A stretch of 64,000 bases of DNA from Enterobacteria phage ATK47: the sequence record NC_055708.1; one strand, given 5' to 3'. Both the position numbers and the translations under genes were made by a program. Under the pieces are notes generated by a model. It saw only the letters and a program-made list of their open reading frames with translations. It had not been told where the DNA came from and searched no databases. Shown one piece after another: positions 1,205 to 63,225 of this stretch; position 1 is the first letter of the stretch; each line of letters starts with the position of its first letter.

Positions 1205-1244
1205 AGTTTACATAAGGATGATGGCGTGTTACTATCATCCTATC
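1205..1244 (+). promoter_or_regulatory. early promoter (GTTTAC -35, TACTAT -10) inside palindrome ggatgat/atcatcc
   Basis: -35/-10 spacing and flanking inverted repeat read directly. Confidence 0.5.
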
Positions 1245-1269
1245 AAATAAACGACCTCAAGGAAATAAA

Positions 1270-1557
1270 ATGAAAACCTATAAAGAATTTATATCACCTG
1301 ATGCTAACGTTTCTACTCTGACCGAAGCGACCCTTACTTCCGAAGTTATTAAAGCAAATAAAGGACGTGAGGGTAAACCAATGATTAGTCTGGTTGACGG
1401 CGAAGAAGTAAAAGGTACTGTTTACTTAGGGGATGGATGGTCTGCTAAGAAAGATGGCGCTACTATTGTTATCTCTCCGGCTGAAGAGACTGCACTGTTT
1501 AAAGCTAAGCATATTTCTGTAGCTCAGCTTAAAATTATTGCAAAAACCCTTCTGTAA
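1270..1557 (+). CDS. internal-protein-like (capsid-targeting N-terminus MKTYKEFI)
   Basis: N-terminus matches T4 internal protein capsid targeting sequence consensus MKTYQEFIAE; LxE sites for prohead protease. Confidence 0.6.
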   Translation: MKTYKEFISPDANVSTLTEATLTSEVIKANKGREGKPMISLVDGEEVKGTVYLGDGWSAKKDGATIVISPAEETALFKAKHISVAQLKIIAKTLL

Positions 1558-1560
1558 GTA

Positions 1561-1600
1561 GTTTACATGCTGATAGGATTATGGTATAGTAGTCCTATCA
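1561..1600 (+). promoter_or_regulatory. early promoter with -10 inside palindrome ataggatta/tagtcctat
   Basis: GTTTACA then TATAGT; inverted repeat flanks -10. Confidence 0.5.
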
Positions 1601-1620
1601 AAATTAATTAGGAAAATAAA

Positions 1621-1929
1621 ATGAAAACTTTCAAAGAATTTATCAATGAAGCGGCTGCACCAAAGACATTCGTTATTAATACTCAAGCGAGTCTTGATGA
1701 TGAGTACGCGGATGCAATTCTGAGGTCACTTGCTAAGAACGGCGTTGAAGTATCTGCATCAGACTTTAAGAAAGGGTCTTCCGAGATGTTTATTTCTATA
1801 GTTAAAGGATCTAAAGCTAAGATTAAATCATCATTCGGAGTTGCTCGTACCGATCAAATCGACAGTCATGACTTTAAACAAACCGGCGTTAAACGGCAGA
1901 ATACGATTGCATCACGCGGAATAAAATAG
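1621..1929 (+). CDS. internal-protein-like (MKTFKEFINE N-terminus)
   Basis: CTS-like N-terminus; SD AGGAAAA upstream. Confidence 0.6.
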   Translation: MKTFKEFINEAAAPKTFVINTQASLDDEYADAILRSLAKNGVEVSASDFKKGSSEMFISIVKGSKAKIKSSFGVARTDQIDSHDFKQTGVKRQNTIASRGIK

Positions 1930-1940
1930 TTTATAAAACC

Positions 1941-1980
1941 GTTTACTTTTAGATAGGGTAGTGATACTATTACCCTATCA
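1941..1980 (+). promoter_or_regulatory. early promoter with palindrome tagggta/taccctat
   Basis: GTTTAC -35, TACTAT -10, inverted repeat. Confidence 0.5.
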
Positions 1981-1998
1981 ACTACTGAGGAGAATAAA

Positions 1999-2184
1999 AT
2001 GAAACGCGCTGAACTGATTCGTAATGTTGCTGTAGTAATTGCTTCAATGGCTTTTAGTTTTTCGATGTTTGTAGGATTCATTTGTGGACTACTGACAACA
2101 ACTGAAAATTCTATCTCATTGGTAGTAGCATTTCTAATCGGTTTAATCGCTATTGTTATGGATAAAATTGCAAAAGGTGAGTAA
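1999..2184 (+). CDS. small hydrophobic membrane protein
   Basis: 61 aa ORF with SD GAGGAG; two hydrophobic segments. Confidence 0.45.
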   Translation: MKRAELIRNVAVVIASMAFSFSMFVGFICGLLTTTENSISLVVAFLIGLIAIVMDKIAKGE

Positions 2185-2185
2185 A

Positions 2186-2548
2186 ATGAAATATCACGTA
2201 TATGCGGATTTTGAAGCAAATCCTTCTAAAGACCCGGATTGTCGTTTATTCCGTAATCCGTTTGATTCAGCAGCTCAAGCATGGGCCTGGATTAAAACTT
2301 GTACTCCTTCTTACACTTTCTTTGAAGTGGTAGATGATAATGGTGTTTTGCATCCAGAACCTACAGAAACTATTAATTTCCTTCTGTTTGCTGGTTATGA
2401 CTGTTATCCTCTTGGTGGTATTGACGACCTTGTTGCTACAGGAAAAACTGTTGAAGCTCTTCGCGAAATTTATAAAAACGCAGAAGAAAATTTTGACTGG
2501 TATCATATTGTTGATGCTCATACCTTTGAAGTGGTGGAACATTCATGA
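2186..2548 (+). CDS. hypothetical protein
   Basis: ORF with SD GGTGAG before ATG at 2186; tight packing. Confidence 0.5.
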   Translation: MKYHVYADFEANPSKDPDCRLFRNPFDSAAQAWAWIKTCTPSYTFFEVVDDNGVLHPEPTETINFLLFAGYDCYPLGGIDDLVATGKTVEALREIYKNAEENFDWYHIVDAHTFEVVEHS

Positions 2549-2835: not shown

Positions 2836-2839
2836 GTAA

Positions 2840-4866: not shown

Positions 4867-4906
4867 GTTTACTTCTTCCCTAGATGTGTTACTATAGATT
4901 TATCAA
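4867..4906 (+). promoter_or_regulatory. early promoter (GTTTAC, TACTAT)
   Basis: consensus elements upstream of 4924 gene. Confidence 0.5.
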
Positions 4907-4923
4907 CCACAGAGGAAAATATT

Positions 4924-5427
4924 ATGAGTCTTTACACTGAACTGAATAAAAAATCTGAAGAATCTGCTGAAACTATTTTTAAAAACGTGCAAAAGCGTAT
5001 TTTGGAAAAGATGTACGATGCAGCATCTAAAGGTGAAAAATCTTGCCGGTTTCCGATGAGGTGTTCTTCTGATTTATGCGCAAATACTATTGAATGGCTG
5101 GAAAGTGAAGGTCTTACGGTAGAGAAAAACCCGGCGACTTCTATTGACAGTGAATCATATATTAGTATTTCTTGGGATAAATCAAGGGTAGAAGAGAAAG
5201 ATGGTGATTGGGTTGTAGATGTTAAAACTTCTGATGGTGGACGTTCTGTTGAAGTTTCAGCTGTAGTTAAAGGTACCCACGGACAAAGGACTTGGGGTTG
5301 GGGTGGTGAAGAAAAAGAAATTGTTCTTAGTGTGATTGCAAGGTCTACTAGCAATAAAATTGCCCAGAGCATCATCTATGCTGCATGTATCGAAGCTGGA
5401 AAAATTTGCAAAATTAAAAATAAATGA
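4924..5427 (+). CDS. hypothetical protein
   Basis: 167 aa ORF with SD AGAGGAAAA; the antisense ORF 4932..5375 is treated as its shadow. Confidence 0.5.
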   Translation: MSLYTELNKKSEESAETIFKNVQKRILEKMYDAASKGEKSCRFPMRCSSDLCANTIEWLESEGLTVEKNPATSIDSESYISISWDKSRVEEKDGDWVVDVKTSDGGRSVEVSAVVKGTHGQRTWGWGGEEKEIVLSVIARSTSNKIAQSIIYAACIEAGKICKIKNK

Positions 5428-5485: not shown

Positions 5486-5713
5486 ATGGCTAAAGTTAGT
5501 ATTGATGTCGTTGATTATGAATACACAGAAGAAGTTATTCGCAACCGTCACCCTGAAGTTCGTATCGATTCAGTACAAGATTCCAAGTTCTGGACAACTG
5601 AGCTTAATCTGAGTGGTCCTTATGAAGCTGTTAAGAAGTTCATGGTTGAAGAATACTGCGAAGGAATGCACCCGGAAGACGCCAAGTTTTATGTCAATTT
5701 GATTAAAAAATAA
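5486..5713 (+). CDS. hypothetical protein
   Basis: 75 aa ORF with SD AGAGGAG. Confidence 0.5.
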   Translation: MAKVSIDVVDYEYTEEVIRNRHPEVRIDSVQDSKFWTTELNLSGPYEAVKKFMVEEYCEGMHPEDAKFYVNLIKK

Positions 5714-5748
5714 TTTACAAACTCTTGAGAGCAGAGTATAATGCTCTC
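5714..5748 (+). promoter_or_regulatory. promoter cassette: TTTACAAACTCTTGAGAG..GAGTATAAT with -10 inside palindrome gagagca/tgctctc
   Basis: near-identical second copy at 36017-36052 with compensatory stem changes. Confidence 0.5.
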
Positions 5749-5783
5749 ATTGGATAATAAACCACCAATTGAAAGGTAATAAT

Positions 5784-6377
5784 ATGAACACACTGAAGAA
5801 ACTTGTTGAATTCATCCGCACTAAACTGGGTACTGCTATGGCTAAAAATCTGACTGTCGAAGAACAGTATAACGCAGCTGCAGATAAGTTGATTACCCAA
5901 ATCAAAGAACTAAAAACGGCTTCTGTTAAATCTATTAATGAAGAAAAACGTATTCGCGAACTTGTTAATGAAAAGAACAAGCAAGCCGCTTCTAAGGAAC
6001 GTGAAATTCGTAAGCTCCTGGCTGAAGGACAAGATGTTACCATGCATGCTAAGCTTGGTCTTCTGTATCGTCGAACTGCCGAACAACTTAATACAAAAGC
6101 TGACGGGTATGCCGCTATGCGAATTGAAATTGCTCGTAAGGTGGTTGAACTTGATGATGCTCGTCAGAACCTGGCAATCAAACTCGAATACATTCGTGAA
6201 ACTCGAGCAGCCAATGCCCTTGGTATCTCTACGGCTGATGATGTAATTGAAATCGCTGCACTGACTAAGGTTGATATCGAAGACACTCTGACTCGTGTTG
6301 AAACGTTCAATGGCACTCCAGCTGGTGTCGAAACCACTTCTGCTGATGTACAAGAATATATTAACTCTTTGAAATAA
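5784..6377 (+). CDS. coiled-coil protein of unknown function
   Basis: 197 aa, heptad-rich, SD AAAGGTAA. Confidence 0.5.
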
Positions 6378-7393: not shown

Positions 7394-7731
7394 CCGTATG
7401 GCCTTCTCTTGGTGAGAACATTCTAATTTTTATTATGAGTATTGGCATGGGATTTGCCTTTGGATTAGTTGGATTTCTTATTGACGGCGTTGTGTTAGGA
7501 TTTATAGGGAACACTGGTGGATTCACAGACCAATGGCAGGACTTACGGTATACCCAAGCCTTTGCATCCATCGCATCATTTTGTACTGTAGTCTATTTTT
7601 ACTACGATTTTATAAACCACAACAAGAAAAATAAAAAGGTTTACGCTTCTCAAATGATTAGTTATAATGAACTCCTAGCTAGACGTGAAAATGAAACAAT
7701 CGAAAACTTTATTAAGGAATGTAGAAAATGA
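7372..7731 (+). CDS. membrane protein, C-terminal NFIKECR motif family
   Basis: two TM segments; C-terminus IENFIKECRK. Confidence 0.45.
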   Translation: MQKPQLLTVWPSLGENILIFIMSIGMGFAFGLVGFLIDGVVLGFIGNTGGFTDQWQDLRYTQAFASIASFCTVVYFYYDFINHNKKNKKVYASQMISYNELLARRENETIENFIKECRK

Positions 7732-8526: not shown

Positions 8527-8566
8527 GTTTACAACAAGATAGGGCTATGTTATAGTAGTCCTATCA
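8527..8566 (+). promoter_or_regulatory. early promoter with -10 inside palindrome
   Basis: GTTTACA, TATAGT, inverted repeat atagggcta/tagtcctat. Confidence 0.5.
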
Positions 8567-8584
8567 AAACAAATGGAGTCCACA

Positions 8585-8824
8585 ATGATTTATTACGAAA
8601 GTATCGGAACCAAAGTGGTTGGTAAAACCATTACTCGTGAAAAGTTTGCAAAGATATTCGATATGCGTTATAAAAAATCTGAACACAAAGGCATCCGATT
8701 CGAAGATGCGCACTGTACAATTTGCCCTTATAATGAAGACATAAACGGTACAATCGTTCCATTGGTAGAGGCTTCACATGATGACCTCTGGGATGAATAT
8801 AATATCGCATGTCGTGAAATTTAA
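8585..8824 (+). CDS. hypothetical protein
   Basis: SD GGAG 6 nt before ATG at 8585. Confidence 0.45.
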   Translation: MIYYESIGTKVVGKTITREKFAKIFDMRYKKSEHKGIRFEDAHCTICPYNEDINGTIVPLVEASHDDLWDEYNIACREI

Positions 8825-9821: not shown

Positions 9822-9860
9822 GTTTACAAGGTCTGTAGTTGTTGATACTATAGACCTATC
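9822..9860 (+). promoter_or_regulatory. early promoter with palindrome aggtct/agacct
   Basis: GTTTACA, TACTAT. Confidence 0.5.
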
Positions 9861-9889
9861 AAAACAAATGAGTGAATGGAGATATAAAA

Positions 9890-10090
9890 ATGACTACTTT
9901 GAATAAACGTTTCGGTAAAGCTAAACCTGGTTGTGCAGCAGAACGTCGTTATGTTTTCGCTCAGTTAGAAGATGTAGAGTATCAGATTAATCAAGTTCAC
10001 ATTACTGGTATCGAGCCTATGTGTGGCCTTGAAGCTCTTCGTGAAGTTCGTGATGGGTATCGTCGTGACATCGAAGAAATGTCAAAATAA
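9890..10090 (+). CDS. hypothetical protein
   Basis: 66 aa ORF from ATG at 9890. Confidence 0.45.
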   Translation: MTTLNKRFGKAKPGCAAERRYVFAQLEDVEYQINQVHITGIEPMCGLEALREVRDGYRRDIEEMSK

Positions 10091-10130
10091 GTGTACAAAC
10101 TGATAGGACTATGTTATAGTAGTCCTATTA
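10091..10130 (+). promoter_or_regulatory. early promoter with palindrome ataggacta/tagtcctat
   Basis: GTGTACA, TATAGT, 9 bp inverted repeat. Confidence 0.5.
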
Positions 10131-10148
10131 AAACATGAGGAGAATATT

Positions 10149-10454
10149 ATGAAATTAGGCGAAACCAACCGAATTGGTCTTTTAACAATATTTGTATCAC
10201 TTTTTTACGCAGCTCTTTCTGTTGCAGTATTACAAAAGGCTTACAGTATGGATGGTGTTCCTGGTTTTGTATTCTTATCGCCGTTTTTGCTATTCGTTGG
10301 AGCATTGTTATTATATGCCACGACTAGTTTCGACCATAACGTCTGGGTCAATTATAAATGTAAATTGTCTGAAGAAGAACACGCAGAAGCTCGTAAAAAA
10401 GCTATTGAATCTACCAATCTAGAAAATTTCATTAAAGAATGTCGAGGAAAATAA
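10149..10454 (+). CDS. membrane protein, C-terminal NFIKECR motif family
   Basis: two TM segments; C-terminus LENFIKECRGK. Confidence 0.5.
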   Translation: MKLGETNRIGLLTIFVSLFYAALSVAVLQKAYSMDGVPGFVFLSPFLLFVGALLLYATTSFDHNVWVNYKCKLSEEEHAEARKKAIESTNLENFIKECRGK

Positions 10455-12315: not shown

Positions 12316-12347
12316 TAATAAATACCTCCTATAAACGTGGGAGGTAT
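12316..12347 (+). promoter_or_regulatory. late-promoter-like AATAAATA plus hairpin sequestering the lysozyme SD
   Basis: tacctcc/ggaggta stem occludes GGAGG; matches the known T4 e regulatory layout. Confidence 0.4.
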
Positions 12348-12348
12348 T

Positions 12349-13116: not shown

Positions 13117-13168
13117 GTTTACTTCCTCCAAGGGTTTTGATACTATACATTCATCAACTACTTGGAGG
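13117..13168 (+). promoter_or_regulatory. early promoter with palindrome ttcctccaag/cttggaggaa
   Basis: GTTTAC, TACTAT; 10 bp inverted repeat whose 3' arm carries the SD. Confidence 0.5.
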
Positions 13169-13587
13169 AAATTATGACTCGTATCAATTTAACACTTGTT
13201 TCTGAACTGTCCGACCAACATCTTATGGCTGAGTATCGTGAATTACCACGCGTATTTGGTGCAGTCCGTAAACATGTTCAAAACGGTAAACGTGTAAAGG
13301 ATTTTAAAATCTCTCCAACATTTATCTTAGGCACAGGTCACGTAACATTCTTTTACGACAAACTCGAATTTTTACGTTTACGTCAAATCGAGCTAATCGC
13401 TGAATGTTTGAAACGTGGTTTCAAAATCAAGGACACGACAGTCCAGGATATTTCCGACATCCCTGCCGAATTTCGTAATAATTATGTCCCGTCCGAAGCG
13501 TCCATTGCGATAAGTCAAGCACGCTTAGATGAAAAAATTGCTCAACGTCCGACTTGGTACAAATACTATGGTAAATCAATTTACTAA
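13162..13587 (+). CDS. denV: endonuclease V, pyrimidine-dimer DNA glycosylase (DenV)
   Basis: [35 protein letters not shown]; near-identical to remembered T4 DenV. Confidence 0.9.
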
Positions 13588-15790: not shown

Positions 15791-16089
15791 TGGCTCAAAT
15801 CCTATCAGGCTTTGGAACTCATTATGAAGCATCTCGACGCATAACTGAAAGCAATCCTTTTGGCCTTGTTCCGAAGCACAAGAAAATTCAAAGCCTTGAT
15901 GACTTTGAGAATCGCCTATGGGCCCTCTTTAATGAGTACAAGGCATATCTGAAAGAAGACGCTGACGATTGTCTTGAAGAAGATGAGATTGCGTATTACG
16001 AACAACGCCTTGAACAGCTCAAGAACTTCCACCAGGTTCGTGACGAAGTATCTAAAGCAGTTAAAAAGTTAATTCCTTTCAAAGAGTAG
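15789..16089 (+). CDS. hypothetical protein
   Basis: ORF from ATG at 15789. Confidence 0.4.
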
Positions 16090-16137
16090 TTTACTTCTCC
16101 TCTAGTTGTGTTACTATAGACCTGTCAACTAGAGGAG
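16089..16137 (+). promoter_or_regulatory. early promoter with 12 bp palindrome ctcctctagttg/caactagaggag
   Basis: GTTTAC, TACTAT; longest palindrome of the set. Confidence 0.55.
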
Positions 16138-16145
16138 AAATCAAA

Positions 16146-16604
16146 ATGACTATCAATTCAGACGTTTTTATCCGCCGCAATAAACTCCGTCGAATCTTTG
16201 AAACGGAGTTCCGCAAAATAAATGCCAGTATAAAAGATGCTGCAAAGTCTCTTGGACTACCAGGCTTTCATATCAAGTATTCTCAACATCTCTTAGATCG
16301 TGCCATCCAGAGAGAAATAGATGAGAATTACGTTTTTGAATTATTTCGTAAAGTAAAAAATCATGTTAAAGAAGTTGCAGAATTTTTATCAATGCCGGCA
16401 CGTCCAGATGTTGATGAAGATTTTGTCGAAGGTGTAGAATATCGCCCAGGCCGTTTAGAAATAACTGATGGAAATCTTTGGTTAGGACTTACAGTTTGTC
16501 GCGAAAATCCGGCATTCAAAATGAAGACTCTTCAATGCAGAATGGCTATTATTAACAATAAACGACTACCAGGAAAAGCTTCTAAAGCAGTGATTAAAAT
16601 CTAG
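16146..16604 (+). CDS. regB: RegB site-specific endoribonuclease
   Basis: MTINSDVFIRRNKLRR..KYSQHLLDRAIQREIDE..GVEYRPGRLEITDGNLWLG..RLPGKASKAVIK matches remembered T4 RegB. Confidence 0.85.
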   Translation: MTINSDVFIRRNKLRRIFETEFRKINASIKDAAKSLGLPGFHIKYSQHLLDRAIQREIDENYVFELFRKVKNHVKEVAEFLSMPARPDVDEDFVEGVEYRPGRLEITDGNLWLGLTVCRENPAFKMKTLQCRMAIINNKRLPGKASKAVIKI

Positions 16605-19922: not shown

Positions 19923-19972
19923 GTTTACTTCTCCTTGAGATGTGTTATAGTAGTCCTTACTTACTAGAGGAG
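19923..19972 (+). promoter_or_regulatory. early promoter with inverted repeat flanking -10
   Basis: GTTTAC, TATAGT, ctcct...aggag arms. Confidence 0.5.
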
Positions 19973-19977
19973 AACGT

Positions 19978-20158
19978 TATGACACGTAAAGAAAAGATTT
20001 CTAAGTTGATGTTTTTGATTGAAGAGTACGCTAATGCGGTATCTGATTGGGAAAATGCTCATGGTTGCGAAGATGGAGACATCGACATTAACAGAGCTAT
20101 GAAAAAGATGGCCGACGCTCACACCGAATTGCAAATGTATGTTAACGAGATTATGTGA
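19978..20158 (+). CDS. hypothetical protein
   Basis: ORF from ATG at 19978. Confidence 0.4.
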
Positions 20159-20165: not shown

Positions 20166-20372
20166 ATGCTTTACGATTATACTGGAAAATCTGAAGACGG
20201 TGTGCTTGAACTTTTACCTGAAAGCGCTGAAGATGATGATATGGTGGCAATGTTTTGTAAAAATGGTCCTGGGGATAAGGGATGGATTTATCTTCGCCAA
20301 GAAAATGACCTAATTGTTTTAGACCCAAAACAAGTTGAAGAACTTTATCAACATTTAAAACACAATCGGTAG
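20166..20372 (+). CDS. hypothetical acidic protein
   Basis: ORF from ATG at 20166. Confidence 0.4.
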   Translation: MLYDYTGKSEDGVLELLPESAEDDDMVAMFCKNGPGDKGWIYLRQENDLIVLDPKQVEELYQHLKHNR

Positions 20373-20410
20373 TTTACATCTTGGTAGGACTATGTTATAG
20401 TAGTCCTACC
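20373..20410 (+). promoter_or_regulatory. early promoter with 10 bp palindrome ggtaggacta/tagtcctacc
   Basis: GTTTACA, TATAGT. Confidence 0.5.
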
Positions 20411-20535
20411 AAAACAAACGGAGAACAAAATGAAACTTTTGCTTATCGCTTATGTTGTAGTACAATACAATTATCCGATGTTTACTTATAACATGGTAAA
20501 CGGCATAGTGAATCTTATTGAAACGAGTATGGTAA

Positions 20536-23060: not shown

Positions 23061-23098
23061 GTGTACATGCTTTTAGGATATGATACTATAGACCTATC
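23061..23098 (+). promoter_or_regulatory. early promoter
   Basis: GTGTACA, TACTAT, aggata...tagacctat. Confidence 0.45.
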
Positions 23099-23127
23099 GA
23101 AACGAAATGAGTAAATTGGAGAATAAA

Positions 23128-24108
23128 ATGTTCAACGTTCAAATCAAAAAAGGTATCTATCGTAATAACGAAATCTCTGGTTCTTATGTTGCCACAAAGA
23201 CATGGTTCCCGGCAAAGCTTAATCCTGAATGTTCCCACTTAGGTGATGGTAAAATTTTCGTTATGATTGATGGTTCTGAACGTGGAGTATGGGTCTTCAA
23301 ATCAGACATCGTAATGGAAGGAGTTGAGACGTCACCAGTTGCAGTTGTTGAAAGCACTGAAGATATGAAAACTCGTATCAACAAACGCTTTAAAGTAATG
23401 AACATGATGACGAATGGCATTATTGATGGCAAAATTCGTTCACTCATTATTTCAGGTGCAGCTGGTATTGGTAAGACGTATTCTCTGGATAAAGCACTTA
23501 ATAATGCTAATGATAATGGTTTCATCAAATACAAAAGCATTAATGGTAAAATCTCCGGTATTGGCCTTTACGAACAACTTTGGCTCAACCGTGATGAAGA
23601 CAGCGTTCTCTTAATCGATGACGTTGACGTATTCTCAGATATGGACATCCTGAACCTTCTTAAAGCAGCATTAGATACCGGAGATAAACGCAAAGTTTGT
23701 TGGAGCACTGCGTCATCTTATCTCGAGGATAAGGGTATTGATAAAGAATTTGAGTTTGAAGGTACTATCGTTTTCATTACAAACGTTGATATCGATAAAG
23801 AGTTAGAACGGGGTTCGAAACTTGCTCCACACCTTCAAGCTTTAGTATCTCGTTCAGTGTATCTCGACCTTGGAGTACACTCTAATGAAGAGATTATGGT
23901 TCGAGTTGAAGATGTAATATTATCTACTGATATGATGCAGAAACGTGGCTTGACTGATGCTGAAACGTATAAAGCATTGTCCTGGATGAAGGCTAATGTA
24001 TCTCGTCTTCGCAATGTATCATTACGTACGGCTCTTTATGTAGCAGATTTTATTTCAACCGATAAAGATGGTTGGGAGGAAATCTCCGAAGTAACTTTAC
24101 TGAAATAA
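23128..24108 (+). CDS. AAA/P-loop ATPase
   Basis: Walker A GAAGIGKT, Walker B VLLIDDVD. Confidence 0.6.
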   Translation: MFNVQIKKGIYRNNEISGSYVATKTWFPAKLNPECSHLGDGKIFVMIDGSERGVWVFKSDIVMEGVETSPVAVVESTEDMKTRINKRFKVMNMMTNGIIDGKIRSLIISGAAGIGKTYSLDKALNNANDNGFIKYKSINGKISGIGLYEQLWLNRDEDSVLLIDDVDVFSDMDILNLLKAALDTGDKRKVCWSTASSYLEDKGIDKEFEFEGTIVFITNVDIDKELERGSKLAPHLQALVSRSVYLDLGVHSNEEIMVRVEDVILSTDMMQKRGLTDAETYKALSWMKANVSRLRNVSLRTALYVADFISTDKDGWEEISEVTLLK

Positions 24109-24535: not shown

Positions 24536-24575
24536 GTTTACAAGGTCTATGGTTATGTTATTATAGACCTATCAA
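24536..24575 (+). promoter_or_regulatory. early promoter with palindrome aggtctat/atagacct
   Basis: GTTTACA, TATTAT. Confidence 0.5.
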
Positions 24576-24591
24576 CTACTGGAGGTAAAAC

Positions 24592-25119
24592 ATGAACGCT
24601 AAAGATATTTTCAACCTGGTAAATTATAACGACGGTAAATTTAAATCTGAAGCACAAAGCAAGTTCTTTAATGACGTTGCTTATGGTAACGAGATTACCG
24701 TAGATGGAGGTCAGATTTTCAAATCTCGCTGGAATTGGATTGTTATCATCGATTCAGTTGGAATTGTGGAAGTCTACAAAAACACTAACAAAAACCGTAC
24801 ATTATTCTGGTCTCGTGAAACTAACGAGCAGTACAAAAAGGATAAAGCATCTCGTTTATCCAAAGTAACCCAGGAAGATATCGAGTTTATTAAGAAAGAT
24901 ATCGAGATGTACGAAAATTTAATCGCTGAAGACCAGGCAGTACTCGATAAGTTTGATGAAATTAAAGCTTCTCGTGAAATCCCTGACTTCATGAAAGAAA
25001 CAGTAAACGAACGATACGCTCTCACTTCAGAACGTATTGCAAACTATACAAAACAGAAAGCAGAACGTATTAGTACTCTTCGGAAATTTGAAGAACGTTT
25101 AAAGACGGTTCACGCATAA
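24592..25119 (+). CDS. hypothetical protein
   Basis: 175 aa ORF with SD GGAGG. Confidence 0.5.
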   Translation: MNAKDIFNLVNYNDGKFKSEAQSKFFNDVAYGNEITVDGGQIFKSRWNWIVIIDSVGIVEVYKNTNKNRTLFWSRETNEQYKKDKASRLSKVTQEDIEFIKKDIEMYENLIAEDQAVLDKFDEIKASREIPDFMKETVNERYALTSERIANYTKQKAERISTLRKFEERLKTVHA

Positions 25120-27195: not shown

Positions 27196-27228
27196 GGTTT
27201 ACAACCAAGGACGGTTGGAGTATAATGA
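27196..27228 (+). promoter_or_regulatory. promoter cassette GTTTACAACCAAGGACGGTTGGAGTATAAT
   Basis: second copy of 26176 element. Confidence 0.45.
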
Positions 27229-27254
27229 ATCTATCTTAACGAGAGGAAAATATT

Positions 27255-28205
27255 ATGACACGTTCACATTACATTGAATACTTTGCCGGGCTTATCGCTA
27301 ACGTTCATGCTCAGCGCGCTACTGGTGCACTAGGATTTGATGTTCCACACCGAGATGTAGTAAGTGGTATTCTTCGCGATTTTGGTACATACACAGGCCA
27401 AGAAAATCATATCTGTAAAGATACTCAAAATGCATATTCTCATTCATTAGGGACGCTGCTTCAATGGTTCAAACGTTCTCGTTTATTATCTTCTACTGTA
27501 GCTCGCGATAACATTAAAAACTTTATGAAGCCGAGCTTTATTAAATCTGTGACATCTAAAACCGATTTGGTTGAATTCACTATTGTTAATGATGTTAAAA
27601 AGACTCATTTGGCTGATTGGTTATCTACCATTCCTGAAACTAAATTTGCTGATAAATTTGCTTGTGAATTCAATAACCAAGTGAATATGCTTTTTAAACA
27701 TTCTCGTAAATTATTCACGGGCGGTGATGGTCGTACAAATAAAGTTCATGTTAAAGATTGGGTTACTGCAGTATTCAAACCGACCGGTAATGGTAACGCA
27801 TCATTATCAATTGATATCCAGGTTCCTTATTACTACTCACGTAATCTCGGTACCATGAAAGCCGAAGAAATTAATAAGCACAACAAAACCGTTCGTTCAT
27901 TGTCTTATAAACTTATTACATTGTTAGAGACTATGGATGTTGTTGAAACGTTCGACGAATCCGAAGATAACGGTTCAATGTTATACAGTTCTCGTACCAG
28001 AATTAAGCTGAAGAACCCTAACGAGTATAAACTTAAGACTATTAAAGAACCTAAAGTAGAAAAAGTTGACAACTTGAGCGAAGAACGTGAATACCTCAAA
28101 TCTCGTCTGAAAGAAGTCGAAGCCCAGATTAAAGAACAAACTAAATCGTTAAAAGCTCTTAATGCGAAAGCGGATGGTTTACGAAATGCCATTGAGGTTT
28201 TATAA
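27255..28205 (+). CDS. hypothetical protein with C-terminal coiled coil
   Basis: 316 aa ORF. Confidence 0.5.
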   Translation: MTRSHYIEYFAGLIANVHAQRATGALGFDVPHRDVVSGILRDFGTYTGQENHICKDTQNAYSHSLGTLLQWFKRSRLLSSTVARDNIKNFMKPSFIKSVTSKTDLVEFTIVNDVKKTHLADWLSTIPETKFADKFACEFNNQVNMLFKHSRKLFTGGDGRTNKVHVKDWVTAVFKPTGNGNASLSIDIQVPYYYSRNLGTMKAEEINKHNKTVRSLSYKLITLLETMDVVETFDESEDNGSMLYSSRTRIKLKNPNEYKLKTIKEPKVEKVDNLSEEREYLKSRLKEVEAQIKEQTKSLKALNAKADGLRNAIEVL

Positions 28206-35776: not shown

Positions 35777-36016
35777 ATGGCCCAAGAATTAGATTTTATC
35801 AAATTCAAAAAACACCTCGACGTTAAAATTGGGGATTCAATTGTTAGGATTGAGTATGACATTTTAACAGATGCTATTACTGTTAGTTGTGATGGAAATA
35901 GTTTCAGCTTCGATACAACCGAAAACAAATACCCAATCTATAAAGGTATCTTTGATATGGGTGTTGATATTACTCCACGTGATACAAATTACTTACTTTT
36001 CATGCTTAAAAAATAA
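35777..36016 (+). CDS. hypothetical protein
   Basis: 79 aa ORF with SD GAGGAAAA. Confidence 0.4.
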   Translation: MAQELDFIKFKKHLDVKIGDSIVRIEYDILTDAITVSCDGNSFSFDTTENKYPIYKGIFDMGVDITPRDTNYLLFMLKK

Positions 36017-36052
36017 TATACAAACTCTTGAGAGATGAGTATAATTCTCTCA
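36017..36052 (+). promoter_or_regulatory. second copy of TACAAACTCTTGAGAG..GAGTATAAT cassette, palindrome gagaga/tctctc
   Basis: direct comparison with 5714-5748. Confidence 0.5.
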
Positions 36053-36082
36053 TCGGATAATAAAATAACCGAGGAAAATAAT

Positions 36083-36415
36083 ATGTCTACTAAAATCAAA
36101 AACGTAGTTAATTCTTTCGCTTTCGATAAAGTTGTTGCTCTTCTGGAATCCGGCAATATTGTTACTCCTCAAGTTCTTGACGCATGGGAATTCCGTCTTT
36201 ATGAAATCATGCAAAAACACGACCAGAAAATTGGACGTAATTCTATTCGTGAAATTCTAGTGCAATATATTCTTTCTGAATTTGACGTTGCTGCATTTGG
36301 TGTTGAATCTAAAGCTTATCAGAAACATGAAATCTCTGAAAAGACTATCCGTCGTATGAAAAATCAACGTAAGAAAAAATTCGTTGACCTGAAAATTGTT
36401 AAGGCGGTAAAATGA
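36083..36415 (+). CDS. hypothetical protein
   Basis: ORF from ATG at 36083. Confidence 0.45.
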   Translation: MSTKIKNVVNSFAFDKVVALLESGNIVTPQVLDAWEFRLYEIMQKHDQKIGRNSIREILVQYILSEFDVAAFGVESKAYQKHEISEKTIRRMKNQRKKKFVDLKIVKAVK

Positions 36416-57554: not shown

Positions 57555-57590
57555 GTTTACATCTTCCTCTAGGCATGATATGATGTACTT
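57555..57590 (+). promoter_or_regulatory. early promoter (GTTTACA, TATGAT)
   Basis: consensus elements. Confidence 0.45.
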
Positions 57591-57613
57591 ACACCAACCA
57601 AGAGGAAAACATT

Positions 57614-57988
57614 ATGAATATGTCTCAAGCAATTTTTACTGCAATCACCGAAAACACAACTGTTGAAGTAGTTTCTCCGCTGGCAACCTACGTTATTCTT
57701 GCTCCTAAATCTATTGTATCTCGTATGGAAAACATGGGCAAACGTATCGTACAAATCGTTGGAGCCGGAAATCAAAAACTTGATTATCTGCGAACCATCA
57801 AAGCTTATGAACATTTCCAACTCGAAAAAGGTTCTCCTATCCAGGTAGAACTCGTAAATGGTGATATCGTTCGAGCAATGTTCCATCATTTCTATGCATT
57901 GAATGACCCATCTAAAGCGGTTCGTTTAATTGCATACGACGCAAACCAAAACGAAATCAACGCAGATATATCTAAATTACGTTTTTAA
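57614..57988 (+). CDS. hypothetical protein
   Basis: 124 aa ORF with SD AAGAGGAAAA. Confidence 0.45.
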   Translation: MNMSQAIFTAITENTTVEVVSPLATYVILAPKSIVSRMENMGKRIVQIVGAGNQKLDYLRTIKAYEHFQLEKGSPIQVELVNGDIVRAMFHHFYALNDPSKAVRLIAYDANQNEINADISKLRF

Positions 57989-58038
57989 GTTTACTTCTCC
58001 AGTAGTTGTGTTATTATAGACCTATCAACTACTGGAGA
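57989..58038 (+). promoter_or_regulatory. early promoter with 10 bp palindrome ccagtagttg/caactactgg
   Basis: GTTTAC, TATTAT. Confidence 0.5.
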
Positions 58039-58043
58039 ACAAA

Positions 58044-58361
58044 ATGAAAACCATCGATTGTAAAGCAGAATTTAAGATTTTTTATCACGGTTCAAGTAGT
58101 TCAGCTAACATCGAAAACATGCTTTGTCCTCCTGAAGAAACAGGAGTTCTGTCTGAAACTGGACGTAAGAAAAACTTGAATCGTGTATTCTTTACTGAAG
58201 ATATCGGTTTAGCAAAGATTTATGCAGGACGAGCAGCACGCTCTTATGGAGGTGAACCACGTCTCTATCGAGTAATTTCTCCGGTAGACGTAGTTCAAAT
58301 GAATAATACTAAAGGTGCTACAGTTTATCACGCTGAATGGGCATTTTGCGAGGAAATATGA
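58044..58361 (+). CDS. hypothetical protein with YHGSS motif (possible NAD-binding/ADP-ribosyltransferase-like fold)
   Basis: motif-level resemblance only. Confidence 0.4.
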   Translation: MKTIDCKAEFKIFYHGSSSSANIENMLCPPEETGVLSETGRKKNLNRVFFTEDIGLAKIYAGRAARSYGGEPRLYRVISPVDVVQMNNTKGATVYHAEWAFCEEI

Positions 58362-58559: not shown

Positions 58560-58600
58560 GTTTACAAGCACCACATACTGTGTTACTATCTTTCTATCAA
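58560..58600 (+). promoter_or_regulatory. early promoter
   Basis: GTTTACA, TGTTACTAT. Confidence 0.45.
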
Positions 58601-58617
58601 CTACAGAGGAAATTGAA

Positions 58618-58986
58618 ATGAAAAAATTAATCGCTTTAGCAATGGTATTTGGATTAACCGGATGTGGTGCCCATGGCTTTATCCCTAATAACGTCGGCCA
58701 ATTGATTTACAATCCGAATGTTAAACAGTACGACCAACCTAAAGTTGAAGTGGAAGACCCGGTTACTGTAGGTAATCGAATGATTCAAGCTGATGCCCAT
58801 GCTCAACGTTATCGTGATTCTGATACTGTAGCATTGTCAAAAGAACAACGCGTTAAAGAACATTGCTTACAGGCTACTGAAATCGCATTCATTCGCTATG
58901 TTGAAACAACTGGTAAAGAGCCTTCCCAGAAACAAATCGCGAATAACTACGTCCAGTGTATTGAACGTTTAAACAAATTTAATTAA
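58618..58986 (+). CDS. lipoprotein (lipobox LTGC)
   Basis: signal peptide MKKLIALAMVFGLTGC. Confidence 0.5.
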   Translation: MKKLIALAMVFGLTGCGAHGFIPNNVGQLIYNPNVKQYDQPKVEVEDPVTVGNRMIQADAHAQRYRDSDTVALSKEQRVKEHCLQATEIAFIRYVETTGKEPSQKQIANNYVQCIERLNKFN

Positions 58987-58989
58987 TTG

Positions 58990-59025
58990 GTTTACACCAA
59001 AGTTAAAATAAGATACTATAAACAT
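58990..59025 (+). promoter_or_regulatory. early promoter
   Basis: GTTTACA, GATACTAT. Confidence 0.45.
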
Positions 59026-59047
59026 AACAAATCAAGAGGAAATTAAC

Positions 59048-59296
59048 ATGGAATTATTCGTAGCTAGTTCAGTAGCAGTTTTAATCGCAGGTATTGGTTC
59101 AATCATCATTTACATGTTGCCTTGGGTAATCGCACTTATTCGTGGCACAAAAAGCACAACAGCAATCTTCTTTGTATCTTTGCTCTTTAACTGGACGATG
59201 GTTGGTTGGATTGGAACTTTAATTTGGTCTATCGTTGCCGAAAAGAAATCTGCTCAGCAGCCTCAACAAGTAATTATTATTCGCGAAAAAGAATAA
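59048..59296 (+). CDS. imm: superinfection-immunity (Imm)-like membrane protein
   Basis: two TM segments; PWVIALIRGTKSTTAIFFVSLLFNWTMVGWIGTLIWS resembles the Imm family pattern. Confidence 0.5.
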   Translation: MELFVASSVAVLIAGIGSIIIYMLPWVIALIRGTKSTTAIFFVSLLFNWTMVGWIGTLIWSIVAEKKSAQQPQQVIIIREKE

Positions 59297-59300: not shown

Positions 59301-59340
59301 GTTTACATTATAGATGGACTATAGTATAGTAGTCCTATCA
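59301..59340 (+). promoter_or_regulatory. early promoter with palindrome ggacta/tagtcc
   Basis: GTTTACA, TATAGT. Confidence 0.5.
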
Positions 59341-59359
59341 AATCAACTAAGGAGTTAAA

Positions 59360-59653
59360 ATGAAAAAGTTATCATTGGCAGCAATCTTACTCGCAGTATC
59401 ATGTGCACCAGCTCCAGTTACAGCAGGTTATGATAAAGACCTCTGTGAGTGGTCAATGACTGCAAATCAAGAAGATGTTGAACATCAAATCTTCGCTGAT
59501 ATCATGAACATTACTAAACGAGACCGTCCTAATATGGTTAATAAAGTTGTTGAACAACTTAAGTCTGGCGGTATCATGCAGTACAACTATGTTTTGTATT
59601 GTGACCCTAATTTCGATAACAAAGATATCGTAACCGAAATCACAGGTGAATAA
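59360..59653 (+). CDS. sp: Spackle (periplasmic inhibitor of gp5 lysozyme, superinfection exclusion)
   Basis: 97 aa with signal peptide; GYDKDLCEWSMTA...SGGIMQYNYVLYCD matches remembered T4 Sp. Confidence 0.7.
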   Translation: MKKLSLAAILLAVSCAPAPVTAGYDKDLCEWSMTANQEDVEHQIFADIMNITKRDRPNMVNKVVEQLKSGGIMQYNYVLYCDPNFDNKDIVTEITGE

Positions 59654-60991: not shown

Positions 60992-61030
60992 TATGATGGC
61001 CTTATTAATTTAAGGCCTCTGGAGAATACT

Positions 61031-62053
61031 ATGGCTGAATGGATAGATAATGAATTTGCTTATCGTGCGTTTTCTCACCTCCCTCGTTTTAGACAAATCA
61101 ATAATTCAAGCACATTTAAATTAACGTTTCGTTGTCCAGTTTGTGGCGACTCTCAGACAGATGCAATGAAAGCCCGCGGATGGTATTATGGTGGTACTCC
61201 AGGTAATGTGCATTGCTATAACTGTCAGTATCATAATACAATTTCCGGATACTTAAAAGAGTATGATGAAGAGCTTTATCGCGAGTATCTAATGGAAGTT
61301 CGTAAAGAAAAAGTTAGAATGGAACCAAAGATTGAAAAGGTTCCTGAACATAAACCAGAACCGGAGAAAAAGACTATAAATTCTTTGCCGTCTTGTTCTC
61401 GTCTGGACAAGCTGCCTGAAGAGCATCCTATTGTGAAATATGTTAAGTCTCGGTGTATTCCTAAAGAATCGTGGAACAGATTATGGTTCACATTAGAATG
61501 GCCTAAATTGGTCAACAAGATTCAACCTGGTACGTATAAGAAAGAGATTCCCGAGCCACGTTTAGTGATTCCTATTTTTAATAAAGATGGGAAGGCCGAG
61601 TCATTCCAAGGACGTGCACTTCGTAAAGATGCTCCTCAGAAATATATCACTATTAAAGCGTTTGAGTCTGCAACAAAAATTTATGGTGTTGAACGTGTTA
61701 AGGAAGGAGACGTCTGGGTAATGGAAGGCCCTATTGATAGTTTATTCATACCCAATGCAATCGCTATTACAGGCGGCTCAATAGATTTAGATGTGGTACC
61801 ATTTAAAGAACGTCGGGTATGGGTAATGGATAATGAACCTAGGCATCCAGATACTATAGCTCGCATGAAGCGATTAGTTGATGCAGGCGAACGTGTCATG
61901 TTCTGGGACCGAGCTCCGTGGAGTTCAAAGGATGTGAATGATATGGTAATGAAAGAAAATGCAACACCACAAGAAATTTTAGAATATATGAAACAGAATA
62001 TTTCAAGTGGGTTGCATGCTAAAATGAGATTATCTCGTTATTCGAAGATTTAA
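61031..62053 (+). CDS. 61: DNA primase gp61
   Basis: Zn ribbon CPVCGDS...CYNC; TOPRIM-like region; near-identical N-terminus to remembered T4 gp61. Confidence 0.9.
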   Translation: MAEWIDNEFAYRAFSHLPRFRQINNSSTFKLTFRCPVCGDSQTDAMKARGWYYGGTPGNVHCYNCQYHNTISGYLKEYDEELYREYLMEVRKEKVRMEPKIEKVPEHKPEPEKKTINSLPSCSRLDKLPEEHPIVKYVKSRCIPKESWNRLWFTLEWPKLVNKIQPGTYKKEIPEPRLVIPIFNKDGKAESFQGRALRKDAPQKYITIKAFESATKIYGVERVKEGDVWVMEGPIDSLFIPNAIAITGGSIDLDVVPFKERRVWVMDNEPRHPDTIARMKRLVDAGERVMFWDRAPWSSKDVNDMVMKENATPQEILEYMKQNISSGLHAKMRLSRYSKI

Positions 62054-62247
62054 ACAAGCCCTATAATAGCAAAGGCCAAATCAACTACAGTATCCAACGG
62101 AACAGAAGGAACTATAATACCATGGGCAACTAACAACGGTGCAATCCCGAAGTTCCATGAAATAATGCCACCTACAACTATTGCGGCGATAGCAGTTTTC
62201 TTTTTATTGCCTTTAATAGCGTTGATTAACGATGGAAGTTTAAACAT
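62050..62247 (-). CDS. small two-TM membrane protein on opposite strand
   Basis: minus-strand ORF with strong SD (AAGGAGAT) 7 nt before ATG; AATAAATA late-promoter-like element upstream. Confidence 0.4.
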   Translation of the reverse strand: MFKLPSLINAIKGNKKKTAIAAIVVGGIISWNFGIAPLLVAHGIIVPSVPLDTVVDLAFAIIGLV

Positions 62248-62335
62248 AATATCTCCTTGGTTACCTATTATTTATTACGCTTTATAAAATTAATGTTAGA
62301 ATTAACTCTCTTATACTGAATTGAAAGGAAAAATA

Positions 62336-62857
62336 ATGGCACACTTTAATGAATGTTCACAACTTATTTCTGGTGTTGATAAAGCAGAAGAAGCTTATTT
62401 TAATGCTCTGATTCACGAAGATAAAGACCCACTGCAGGTAATGCTTGATATGCAGAAATCTTTACAGGTTCGTCTGGCAAATGACAAGCCTGAACATAAC
62501 AAACATCCTGATGAATTGGCCACTGCTGGTGATGTTGTTGATTGGCTGCGTAATCAGAAAGATTATATTGATGATGAATTCCGTGAACTGTTGACTTCAC
62601 TTGGTGGTATGAGCAATGGTGAAAAAGCCGCCAGCAGTGTATGGAAGCCATGGAAAGCACAACATGCTGAATATCGAAATCGTCGTATCGATGAACTGTC
62701 TCCTGAAGACCAGCTTGAAATTAAATTTGAAATGATTGATATTCTGCATTTCGTTCTAAATATGTTCCAAGGTCTAGGTCTTTCGGCTGAAGAAATCTTT
62801 AAACTTTACTACTTGAAAAACCAACACAACTTTGAACGTCAGGATAATGGTTACTAA
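62336..62857 (+). CDS. 56: dCTPase/dCDPase gp56 (MazG-like)
   Basis: MAHFNECSQLI...; 173 aa; position next to 61 as in T4. Confidence 0.8.
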   Translation: MAHFNECSQLISGVDKAEEAYFNALIHEDKDPLQVMLDMQKSLQVRLANDKPEHNKHPDELATAGDVVDWLRNQKDYIDDEFRELLTSLGGMSNGEKAASSVWKPWKAQHAEYRNRRIDELSPEDQLEIKFEMIDILHFVLNMFQGLGLSAEEIFKLYYLKNQHNFERQDNGY

Positions 62858-62863
62858 TTAAGT

Positions 62864-62871
62864 TATAAATA
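62864..62871 (+). promoter_or_regulatory. late promoter TATAAATA upstream of soc
   Basis: exact T4 late promoter consensus. Confidence 0.55.
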
Positions 62872-62902
62872 CACCTGTAATTAAACAACAAAGGAGTTAA
62901 TT

Positions 62903-63139
62903 ATGGGTGGTTATGTAAACATCAAAACCTTTACGCATCCTGCTGGTGAAGGCAAAGAAGTTAAAGGTATGGAAGTTTCTGTTCCGTTTGAGATTTATTC
63001 AAACGAACATCGGATTGCAGATTCTCATTACCAAATCTTTCCATCAGAAAAGGCAGCTTATTCTGATGTCGTTTCTGATGCAGCAACTTGGAAAACTAAG
63101 AACGCTGCAATGTTTACCCCTACGCCAGTAAGTGGTTAA
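62903..63139 (+). CDS. soc: small outer capsid protein Soc
   Basis: GYVNIKTF...HYQIFPSEKAAYS matches remembered T4 Soc. Confidence 0.8.
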   Translation: MGGYVNIKTFTHPAGEGKEVKGMEVSVPFEIYSNEHRIADSHYQIFPSEKAAYSDVVSDAATWKTKNAAMFTPTPVSG

Positions 63140-63148
63140 ATAATTTAA

Positions 63149-63172
63149 GGAATCCTTCGGGATTCCTTTTTT
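63149..63172 (+). terminator. rho-independent terminator (ggaatcc ttcg ggattcc TTTTTT)
   Basis: UUCG hairpin + T6. Confidence 0.6.
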
Positions 63173-63183
63173 CGTTTCTAGAG

Positions 63184-63225
63184 TTTACATCCACTAAAAA
63201 CTATGTTAAGATATTCTTACTTACT
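63184..63225 (+). promoter_or_regulatory. early promoter
   Basis: GTTTACA, TATGTTAAGAT. Confidence 0.4.

Follow-up and report, generated by a model that had tools for sequence, protein, structure and literature searches.

Palindrome-bearing early-promoter cassettes in an RB69-like phage, with candidate roles in the masking of ribosome sites and in gene exchange

Why do so many of the early promoters in the accessory regions of a T4-like phage carry inverted repeats around their -10 elements, and do these repeats act as DNA or as RNA? These questions are raised by a 64,000-nucleotide (nt) stretch of Enterobacteria phage ATK47 (NC_055708.1), referred to throughout as the window, for which we used Enterobacteria phage ATK48 (KT184310.1) as the annotation reference; the window corresponds to positions 24505-88504 of that record, window 15000-22000 is identical (100%), and we refer to the sequence as ATK48 below. 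The initial annotation had described more than twenty promoters with the -10 element in the loop of a palindrome, and had offered operator sites, RNA hairpins that mask the next gene's ribosome-binding site in read-through transcripts, and recombination modules as possible roles. Our analysis indicates that these units are very probably cassettes of the early-promoter stem-loop (PeSL) type, whose sequence-level definition they match, such that the "PeSL-like" label of the initial annotation was well chosen. We further consider it probable that the cassettes combine the masking of ribosome sites by one structural class with a role of their promoter sequence as a homology patch for gene exchange.

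ATK48 is assigned to Mosigvirus, the genus of RB69-like phages within the Tevenvirinae, and window 15000-22000 has a 95-99% match in 154 other phage records. The gene order starts with gene 1 and continues over the ip, e, denV, vs/regB, tk, nrdC, 49, nrdD and 55 regions and the replication genes (47 to 41) to the dmd/imm/sp/61/56/soc region at the window end, with the + strand being the strand of the early genes. A strict scan of the window for GTTTAC-N15-19-TAnnnT gave 25 matches on the + strand and 2 on the - strand. With one -35 mismatch allowed, and with a Shine-Dalgarno (SD) sequence and an ATG required downstream, 23 credible early promoters were obtained, to which the inverted-repeat scan and an indel junction added two with degenerate -35 elements (ATGTAC at 35714 and ATATAC at 36016). 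All of these approximately 25 T4-type early promoters (GTTTAC-N17/18-TAnnnT) lie on the + strand and in accessory regions (ip, e.x, vs, tk, nrdC.x, 55.x and dmd-imm-sp), which is where the initial annotation had placed them, and the promoter scan found none between 36.1 and 57.5 kilobases (kb) of the window. We note that this cassette-free stretch (36100-57500) is the 21-kb replication and recombination block (47, 46, 45, 44, 62, regA, 43, 42, uvsX, 41). The cassettes share a layout, with the stop codon of the upstream gene preceding the 5′ arm by 3-21 nt and with an SD and an ATG downstream. Pfam gave no domain matches for the open reading frames (ORFs) bounded by cassettes, and Rfam, searched at the gathering score, matched only two tRNAs in the window, with the cassettes belonging to no curated family.

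To quantify the palindromes, we took the best ungapped Watson-Crick stem with at most one mismatch bracketing the -10 element of each of the 23 promoters. Stems of at least 8 base pairs (bp) are present in 13 promoters and of at least 9 bp in 10, compared to means of 1.5 (maximum 5) and 0.5, respectively, in 300 dinucleotide shuffles of the spacer and downstream flank, an approximately ninefold enrichment over the shuffles at 8 bp; as a background, 6.6% of 1,488 other TAnnnT sites have an 8-bp stem. Of the 19 cassettes folded, thirteen have energies of -12.9 to -21.7 kcal/mol with z-scores (z) of -2.7 to -6.1, and the folds of 4867, 19923, 57555, 24536, 59301 and 36016 are no better than those of their shuffles; another six promoters (7639, 23061, 27197, 58560, 58990 and 63183) have stems of at most 6 bp. 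When the local inverted repeats of the 64 kb are ranked by strength, eight of the top 28 are located at cassette promoters, and these eight include both of the longest (15 and 14 bp) and one of the two that measure 13 bp. Thus, inverted repeats are indeed commoner around these promoters than in shuffled sequence, the four examples initially cited (16089, 20373, 57989 and 10091) are present as described, and "more than twenty promoters" is correct as a promoter count. The accompanying claim that these promoters hold the -10 element in the loop of an 8-12 bp repeat applies only to the 13 of 23 given above. A stem-loop within or beside the promoter is present in 13 of the 25 cassettes, and the other 12 are plain early promoters: the phenomenon is far above chance and touches about half of the promoters.

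The stems fall into two classes (Table 1). In class A, the 5′ arm directly follows the -35 element and is an anti-SD (TTCTCC or TCCTCC), the -10 element is enclosed by a loop of 17-28 nt, and the SD itself forms the end of the 3′ arm. Strong copies are found at 13117 (denV), 16089 (regB), 57989 (ORF 58044) and 34589, and weak copies at 4867, 19923 and 57555, so that an SD in the 3′ arm, initially said to occur often, is real in these four strong and three weak copies, which remain a minority. In class B (nine copies, at 1206, 1561, 1941, 5713, 8527, 9822, 10091, 20372 and 35713), the spacer contains the 5′ arm, and the 3′ arm extends from the last bases of the -10 element to about +5 (-7..+5), typically as AGTCCTATC or AGACCT. 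The class B loop is 6-13 nt, the unpaired SD is found 8-25 nt beyond the 3′ arm, and the hairpin ends up 15-35 nt before the start codon.

Table 1. Early-promoter cassettes, a reference hairpin and cassette-bounded indels in the window (energies in kcal/mol)
Feature	Position	Strand	Elements	Energy; z	Remarks
regB cassette, class A	16089..16148	+	-35 16089-16094; -10 TACTAT in loop		
regB cassette arms	16093-16108 / 16126-16141	+	15/16 bp; SD AGGAG in 3′ arm	-21.6; z -3.9	
denV cassette, class A	13117..13176	+	arms 13121-13132 / 13161-13172, 11/12 bp; SD GGAGG in 3′ arm	-19.1; z -4.5	SD unpaired 0.00 in read-through RNA vs 0.58 in own transcript
Class A, upstream of ORF 58044-58361	57989..58046	+	arms 57995-58008 / 58026-58039, 14/14 bp; SD GGAG in 3′ arm	-21.7; z -5.3	SD unpaired 0.01 in read-through RNA vs 0.58 in own transcript
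Class A, moderate	34589..34648	+	arms 34596-34605 / 34629-34638, 9/10 bp; SD GAGGA in 3′ arm	-12.9; z -2.7	ORF start is ATG at 34646; predicted terminator ~80 nt upstream
Early promoter with weak anti-SD/SD pairing	4867..4926	+	5/6 bp	z +0.4	No better than shuffles
Weak class A	19923..19981	+	7-bp TTCTCCT/AGGAGAA, 32-nt loop	z -0.5	
Weak class A	57555..57616	+	TTCCTCTAGG/CCAAGAGGAA, 9/10 bp	z -1.0	Annotated terminator directly upstream
Class B	20372..20432	+	arms 20379-20391 / 20402-20414, 12-13 bp	-20.9; z -6.1	-10 TATAGT spread over loop and start of 3′ arm; SD downstream, unpaired
Class B	10091..10151	+	-35 GTGTAC; stem 10101-10130	-17.8; z -4.0	
Class B	9822..9892	+	AGGTCTGTAGT...ACTATAGACCT, 9829-9857	-16.6; z -2.8	
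Three class B, internal-protein locus	1206..2001	+	-35 at 1206, 1561, 1941; stems 1215-1241, 1571-1600, 1950-1981	z -2.7, -3.4, -2.9	
Class B	5713..5786	+	-35 ATTTAC; arms TGAGAGCA (5726-5733) and TGCTCTCA (5742-5749) around TATAAT	-15.6; z -2.9	
Class B	8527..8587	+	stem 8538-8565	-16.1; z -3.5	
Two class B, degenerate -35	35713..36085	+	35713: stem 35723-35756, 13/14 bp; 36016: weak 6-7 bp stem		Flank ORF 35777-36016
Weak class B	24536..24594	+	AGGTCTAT...ATAGACCT	z -1.9	
Weak class B, upstream of sp	59301..59362	+	GGACTA...TAGTCC	z -1.4	
Early promoter, no bracketing stem	23061..23130	+	-35 GTGTAC		Terminator upstream
Early promoter-like site, no significant stem	7639..7731	+			
Early promoter, no significant stem	27197..27257	+			
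Two early promoters, no significant stems	58560..59050	+	58560 and 58990		58990 upstream of imm
Early promoter, no significant stem	63183..63243	+			
Gene e (lysozyme) hairpin sequestering the ribosome-binding site	12321..12348	+		-16.3; z -4.5	Late gene; reference, not a cassette
Indel, two internal-protein genes	1292-1556, 1644-1989				ORFs between cassettes replaced in mogra
Indel, ORF 9890-10090	between 9822 (left) and 10091 (right) cassettes				Boundaries exactly at -35 boxes; ORF absent from mogra and Shf125875
Indel, ORF 35777-36016	between 35713 and 36016 cassettes				Absent from mogra

The position of the arms relative to the transcription start is what gives this geometry its potential meaning. 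The T4 promoter Pe133295 starts at the seventh base after the -10 element, a position that belongs to the 3′ arm of a class B palindrome, and we predicted the ATK48 starts by the same 7-nt rule, for which the name of this promoter is the sole check, as the T4 GenBank and RefSeq records carry no promoter features. The predicted class A starts are situated within the loop or at the 3′ arm's edge, and those of class B within or after the 3′ arm; since the 5′ arm thus precedes the transcription start, the full hairpin would be present only in RNA arriving from upstream. Such read-through RNA is to be expected, because all strong cassettes except 34589 directly abut the upstream ORF with no terminator in between. 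In class A, the SD is unpaired at 0.00-0.31 in the predicted read-through RNA compared to 0.58-0.79 in the transcript from the embedded promoter, whereas the SDs of class B are more open in read-through RNA than in their own shuffles. The suggestion of the initial annotation that the hairpins hide the next ribosome-binding site can therefore be retained for class A and not for class B, where the SD stays open. In addition, anti-SD 4-mers are found in 21 of 61 ATK48 and T4 early-promoter spacers and in 10 of 142 control windows (p = 2.5e-6).

Comparison with other phages provides insight into whether structure or sequence is conserved. T4 has stems of at least 8 bp in 14 of its 35 promoters, with class A at regB, denV and nrdC.8 and class B at ipI, ipII, ipIII, dmd, mobD.2 and cd.3, and its arm sequences are unlike those of ATK48. 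Further regB and denV loci were retrieved from IMG/VR by protein anchor; a pattern scan of the same database with the upstream consensus TTTCAYAAARNNGTTTAC was set aside, with mostly unrelated contigs among the matches listed. The regB leaders obtained represent five lineages, each of which pairs the spacer with the SD, using inner helices that differ from lineage to lineage (CTAGTTG/CAACTAG, CTTGACTG/CAGTTAAG, CTTTATG/CATAAAG and TGTAAG/CTTACA, with the fifth, L139/L140, placing a GC-rich GGGCCAT/ATGGCCC inside a weaker outer anti-SD/SD pairing). Arms that vary and yet stay complementary, as initially noted among the copies and confirmed for them here, are thus found among orthologues as well. 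As a MAFFT alignment lost the register of these helices, we used hand-anchored arms, and found that 4 of 12 pairs have changed on both sides and that 93% of cells pair, compared to 50-59% in slid controls, a count which comes from six sequences with arms chosen by hand, leaning towards structure, and which is therefore supportive and not decisive. We also note that the 5′ arm ATCTCCTGTAAGAT of three regB leaders (L137, L138 and L141; some 60 nt ahead of locus position 1501) can pair with either of two alternative 3′ sequences, ATCTTA just after the -10 element (class B-like) or CTTACAGGAGA including the SD (class A), each to the exclusion of the other; this double pairing could constitute a structural switch.

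At denV, the larger sample permits a quantitative comparison. The SD of 31 distinct leaders is unpaired at 0.24 in read-through RNA, compared to 0.54 in the own transcript and to 0.38 with the sequence upstream of the start shuffled (p = 3e-8 and 1e-4, respectively). Values below 0.2 occur in 12 of the 31 leaders, but in no own transcript and no per-leader shuffle mean. The spacer holds the 5′ arm in some lineages, and in others the arm covers the -10 element and discriminator, as in gene e; in every leader it is wholly or largely upstream of the start site. That masking is conserved while its architecture varies argues for selection on the masking itself. It also bears on the proposal that the complementarity is a by-product, with a few ancestral palindromic cassettes having been copied by recombination and their structure never selected. 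The ATK48 class B copies are certainly related, the GATAGGnCT and AGTCCTATC arms recur among them, and cassettes are exchanged between sites. Unselected copying, however, does not lead one to expect orthologues and paralogues with different yet complementary arms changed on both sides, the enrichment over shuffles described above, or a denV SD masked by differently placed 5′ arms across lineages, which indicates convergence, and we regard this proposal as highly improbable.

A further possibility is that the stem-loops are terminators or attenuators that isolate the cassettes from upstream transcription, the function proposed in the PeSL papers, and here there is experimental precedent: one RB49 stem-loop cut downstream lacZ expression approximately as much as rrnB T1 (PMC2839356). 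Conventional terminators are also found just upstream of three ATK48 cassettes (23012-23030, and annotated at 34479-34505 and 57531-57551), and G/C-rich hairpins with T-runs behind them are present at or before the -35 element in one distant regB leader and in the jumbo-phage denV leaders. The hairpins that bracket the -10 elements in ATK48 are of a different kind: their stems are AT-rich and of 10-15 bp, their loops reach 28 nt, the sequence that follows is A-rich with no T-run, and a scan for T-tailed terminator-like sites, covering positions 1-20000, contained no cassette hairpin. By this sequence proxy, the lack of a U-tail, we rejected an intrinsic-terminator reading of the -10-bracketing stems. 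A terminator function moreover leaves unexplained why the 3′ arm of class A is always the SD, and why SD pairing is the part conserved in orthologues. We therefore consider isolation from upstream transcription to be an unlikely explanation, and continue with pairing in RNA as the preferred reading for class A.

Two related observations deserve mention in their own right. The terminator at 23012-23030 is a GGGACC-UUCG-GGUCCC tetraloop hairpin with a T-run, approximately 30 nt before the 23061 promoter, which is the "stem-loop just upstream of promoter" layout published for PST and T4, here coexisting with -10-bracketing stems. In jumbo-phage denV loci (L166, L168, L172 and L174, on contigs of 345-378 kb), the TTGAC -35 element is part of a G/C-rich hairpin that has a T-run behind it (AAAAGGGTTGACTTCGGTCAGCCCTTTTT), a layout that resembles the terminator-plus-promoter PeSL of RB49 and is unlike those of ATK48 and T4.

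Whether the arms pair as RNA or as DNA can be approached through the mismatches they tolerate. In 50 distinct arm pairs, mismatches inside fixed Watson-Crick helices comprise 11 G-U and 2 A-C, compared to 53% G-U in a composition control (p = 0.026, resting on 13 mismatches, some of which come from related cassettes and are thus not fully independent), and this excess is suggestive of pairing in sense-strand RNA. The same bias speaks against the palindromes being operators or structure-dependent DNA elements of the promoter, for example in early-promoter shut-off. The centring of the palindrome on the -10 element would fit such a role, as would the core TAGGACTATGTTATAGTAGTCCTA shared by several ATK48 class B copies, and the mechanism of early-promoter shut-off in T4 is described as unknown (PMC2988021, PMC3014915). 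Set against this, half of the early promoters have no palindrome, loop lengths range from 6 to 28 nt, and the arms vary widely (AATTGTGA, GACAAGATTA, GATGAGGTA, GGTAGAG, TTCTCCTCTAGTTG and others). As the arms differ between copies and between ATK48 and T4, they do not present a single site for one sequence-specific protein, and we have rejected the operator role put forward in the initial annotation, for which we see very little likelihood.

The third role initially proposed, that of recombination modules, is supported by comparison with close relatives. A blastn alignment of ATK48 with mogra and with Shf125875, each 96-98% identical to it, revealed 17 distinct indels or replacements, of which four have a cassette at both ends. 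At 9822/10091 and at 35713/36016, mogra has a single, clearly chimeric cassette, the upstream half of which corresponds to the left ATK48 cassette and the downstream half to the right one, and Shf125875 carries the 23061 cassette twice, around an extra ORF. Indel boundaries fall in cassettes in 10 of 34 cases compared to the 4.5% expected by length (p = 2e-6), although the true excess will be smaller, because a null based on length ignores the preference of indels for intergenic DNA. These cassette-to-cassette indels are independent support for PeSL gene shuffling in a third genus, where the cassettes behave as published. In the remaining 13 of the 17 events, at least one end is free of a cassette. 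Nine of these are ORF-sized deletions or insertions with a cassette at neither end, so that a second, cassette-independent route of gene gain and loss is also at work.

It could be argued from these events that the repeats are selected as shuffling hot spots and not for expression, with the palindromes promoting DNA recombination as hairpins or cruciforms that are cut by gp46/47 (an SbcCD-like palindrome-specific endonuclease) or by endonuclease VII, and with the resulting breaks seeding exchange. Both gp46/47 and gp49 are encoded in the window, PeSL mini-circles have been described in RB49 and phi1, with one crossover in the loop part of the stem-loop (PMC2839356), one class B palindrome of T4 has a loop that was at one time reported as inverted, and the four cassette-bounded indels and two chimeric junctions are in line with such a role. 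The crossovers at 9822/10091 and 35713/36016, however, map at or near the -35 box and not in the stems, and since plain homology between cassettes suffices for them, this explanation is weakened. It is further at odds with the 13 events that are not cassette-to-cassette and with the excess of G-U over A-C, and does not account for a class A arm that is the SD. We thus consider it improbable that recombination is what the palindromes are selected for, and retain the reading in which the hairpins act in RNA and the promoter sequence supplies the homology.

With regard to the inverted loop, the RefSeq record of T4 (NC_000866, 133300-133313, locus L126, between cd.2 and cd.3) notes that these 14 nt are the inverted complement of an earlier sequence, and the segment, at promoter Pe133295, is precisely the -10-bearing loop that the class B arms GGTAGAG and CTCTACC enclose. 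This could be accounted for either by real flipping between inverted repeats or by an old sequencing error caused by the hairpin. A second local difference concerns the promoter at 58560, where the spacer and the -10-proximal part are wholly different between window 58560-58620 and the Shf125875 counterpart (L224 16722-16782), with conserved flanks and downstream gene in phages that are 97% identical, which suggests cassette replacement or gene conversion.

Taking these results together, we lean towards the reading that class A hairpins mask the ribosome site in read-through RNA, while noting that, beyond the hand-anchored regB arms and the small number of mismatches mentioned above, several observations weigh against it. 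Across 61 ATK48 and T4 promoters, the SD is unpaired at 0.42 in read-through RNA and 0.60 in the own transcript (p = 2e-7), but dinucleotide-shuffled spacers give the same 0.42; family-wide masking is no different from shuffles because the distribution is bimodal, and following this null we dropped masking as a general property of all promoters and restrict it to a subset. Class B, which forms the majority, never touches the SD, and masking provides no confirmed function for it; its hairpins may act as an RNA 3′-end barrier, as an attenuator or as a recombination aid. The upstream stop codon of the strong class A copies precedes the 5′ arm by only 3-6 nt, so that terminating ribosomes could open the helix, which would amount to coupling rather than silencing. 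A distant sixth regB leader (L142) has no stem, with an upstream terminator in its place, and the 58560 promoter has no stem in ATK48 where its Shf125875 counterpart has a 7-bp class B stem. Finally, a cruder test for RNA pairing, based on stem length with either G-U or A-C allowed, gave p = 0.14.

In the mechanism that we propose, strong sigma-70 promoters are each placed directly before a single small early gene, and in approximately half of these promoters, the 5′ arm of an inverted repeat lies in the spacer between -35 and -10, upstream of the predicted start, such that the hairpin would form only in read-through RNA. Read-through RNA across a class A cassette would have its ribosome site locked in a helix of -13 to -22 kcal/mol, and would be either silent or translated only on opening of the helix by a ribosome that terminates 3-6 nt upstream, whereas the gene's own transcript, beginning between the arms, would be freely translated; translation would thus be tied to the gene's own immediate-early promoter. 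That the hairpin forms in vivo and blocks translation we infer from sequence and predicted folding. Apart from the hairpins, the common promoter sequence acts as a homology patch for the insertion, deletion and exchange of small ORFan genes.

A broader proposal, which we put forward tentatively as possible rather than probable, is that anti-SD hairpins in early promoters are a conserved form of translational insulation across T4-like phages, with regB and denV being translated only from their own immediate-early transcripts, and with read-through and middle RNAs being folded, silent and protected from RegB. T4 RegB cleaves its own SD, and the GGAG of T4 denV is resistant. The GGAG of early SDs is the target of RegB cleavage, which RNA structure inhibits (PMC1702504, PMC3014915); the enzyme would therefore be expected to reach the exposed SD of short transcripts and not that of folded long ones. 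If this proposal is correct, the hairpins would provide a simple cis-acting share in the rapid shut-off of early proteins, the mechanism of early-gene shut-off in T4 still being called unknown (PMC2988021, PMC3014915). Part of the "terminator" effect of PeSLs would then really be post-transcriptional, and the terminator reading would need to be revised; class A would in addition offer a compact natural part that joins a promoter to a translational insulator.

Some further observations concern the annotation of the window. Six ORFs with good SDs (1621-1929, 2840-3355, 4336-4800, 4924-5427, 9890-10090 and 20430-20530) are unannotated in the ATK48 record, several of them sit behind early promoters, and their homologues are annotated in relatives, for example as Ip7 and RB69ORF151c in Shf125875. 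Many ATK48 nrdC.x genes are labelled "thioredoxin", which looks like label carry-over. The ATK48 record also describes the gene e hairpin (feature 12323-12359) as a "putative terminator (ARNold)"; this hairpin, AATACCTCCTA-TAAACG-TGGGAGGTATT, is followed directly by the lysozyme ATG with no T-tail, and is the counterpart of that of T4 gene e.

The closest published system is that of the PeSLs themselves, which were defined in RB49 and phi1 (Arbiol 2010) as early promoters whose stem-loops can occupy five positions, most commonly between -35 and -10 or overlapping the -10 element (PMC2839356), and were extended to T4/PST and KVP40/nt-1 (Comeau 2014), where the stem-loops are placed just upstream of the promoter (PMC4122927). 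The 2010 paper makes no mention of translation, ribosomes or read-through (PMC2839356), and the RB69 genome paper lists 57 early promoters with stem-loops or palindromes unmentioned (PMC1524935). The ATK48 cassettes share with PeSLs an early sigma-70-type promoter (TTTACW-N17-TAYWAT in T4 and PST) with AT-rich sequence upstream, an SD with an ATG, and a stem-loop, as well as their occurrence in many copies, in hyperplastic clusters beside ORFans and at indel boundaries produced by cassette-to-cassette recombination. They differ in that the published stem-loops are compact, G/C-rich in RB49 and read as terminators or attenuators, whereas the ATK48 arms bracket the -10 element with loops of 6-28 nt and no U-tail, and the 3′ arm of class A is the SD; RB69-type phages also lie outside the published coverage. 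As PeSL cassettes are established biology, one more RB69-like phage adds little, and the SD masking of class A, apparently absent from the PeSL literature, would be the only part with some novelty.

In other respects, the cassettes resemble lambdoid morons, which are likewise small accessory genes with their own expression signals that are gained and lost as units, although no conserved repeated cassette mediates the exchange of morons, a distinction drawn by Arbiol et al. as well (PMC2839356). The anti-SD "insulator" motifs of E. coli sigma-54 promoters, which silence read-through translation (Levy et al., 10.1101/086108), are also CT-rich, lie inside the promoter and are located upstream of the start site, but are 3-5 nt long and bacterial, compared to the 10-16 bp of class A in phage sigma-70 promoters of many genes.

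The nearest functional parallel is provided by the hairpins of T4 e, soc, 49 and I-TevI, which silence long transcripts while an internal promoter yields translatable RNA (PMC3014915). As in class A, the 3′ arm contains the SD or AUG, and the promoter's own transcript lacks the 5′ arm (by the predicted starts, in the case of class A); the class A helices at regB, denV and 57989 (-19 to -22 kcal/mol) are more stable than the gene e hairpin of the window itself. The T4 hairpins, however, enclose late promoters (TATAAATA, gp55-dependent) and hold back expression until the late phase of infection, whereas the immediate-early sigma-70 promoter of class A would confine translation to the earliest transcripts. 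The class A cassettes would thus work like the e/soc/49/I-TevI family without being members of it, because the promoter embedded in them is an early sigma-70 one, and they suggest that promoter-tied translation, a design known for late genes, may also operate in the opposite temporal direction.

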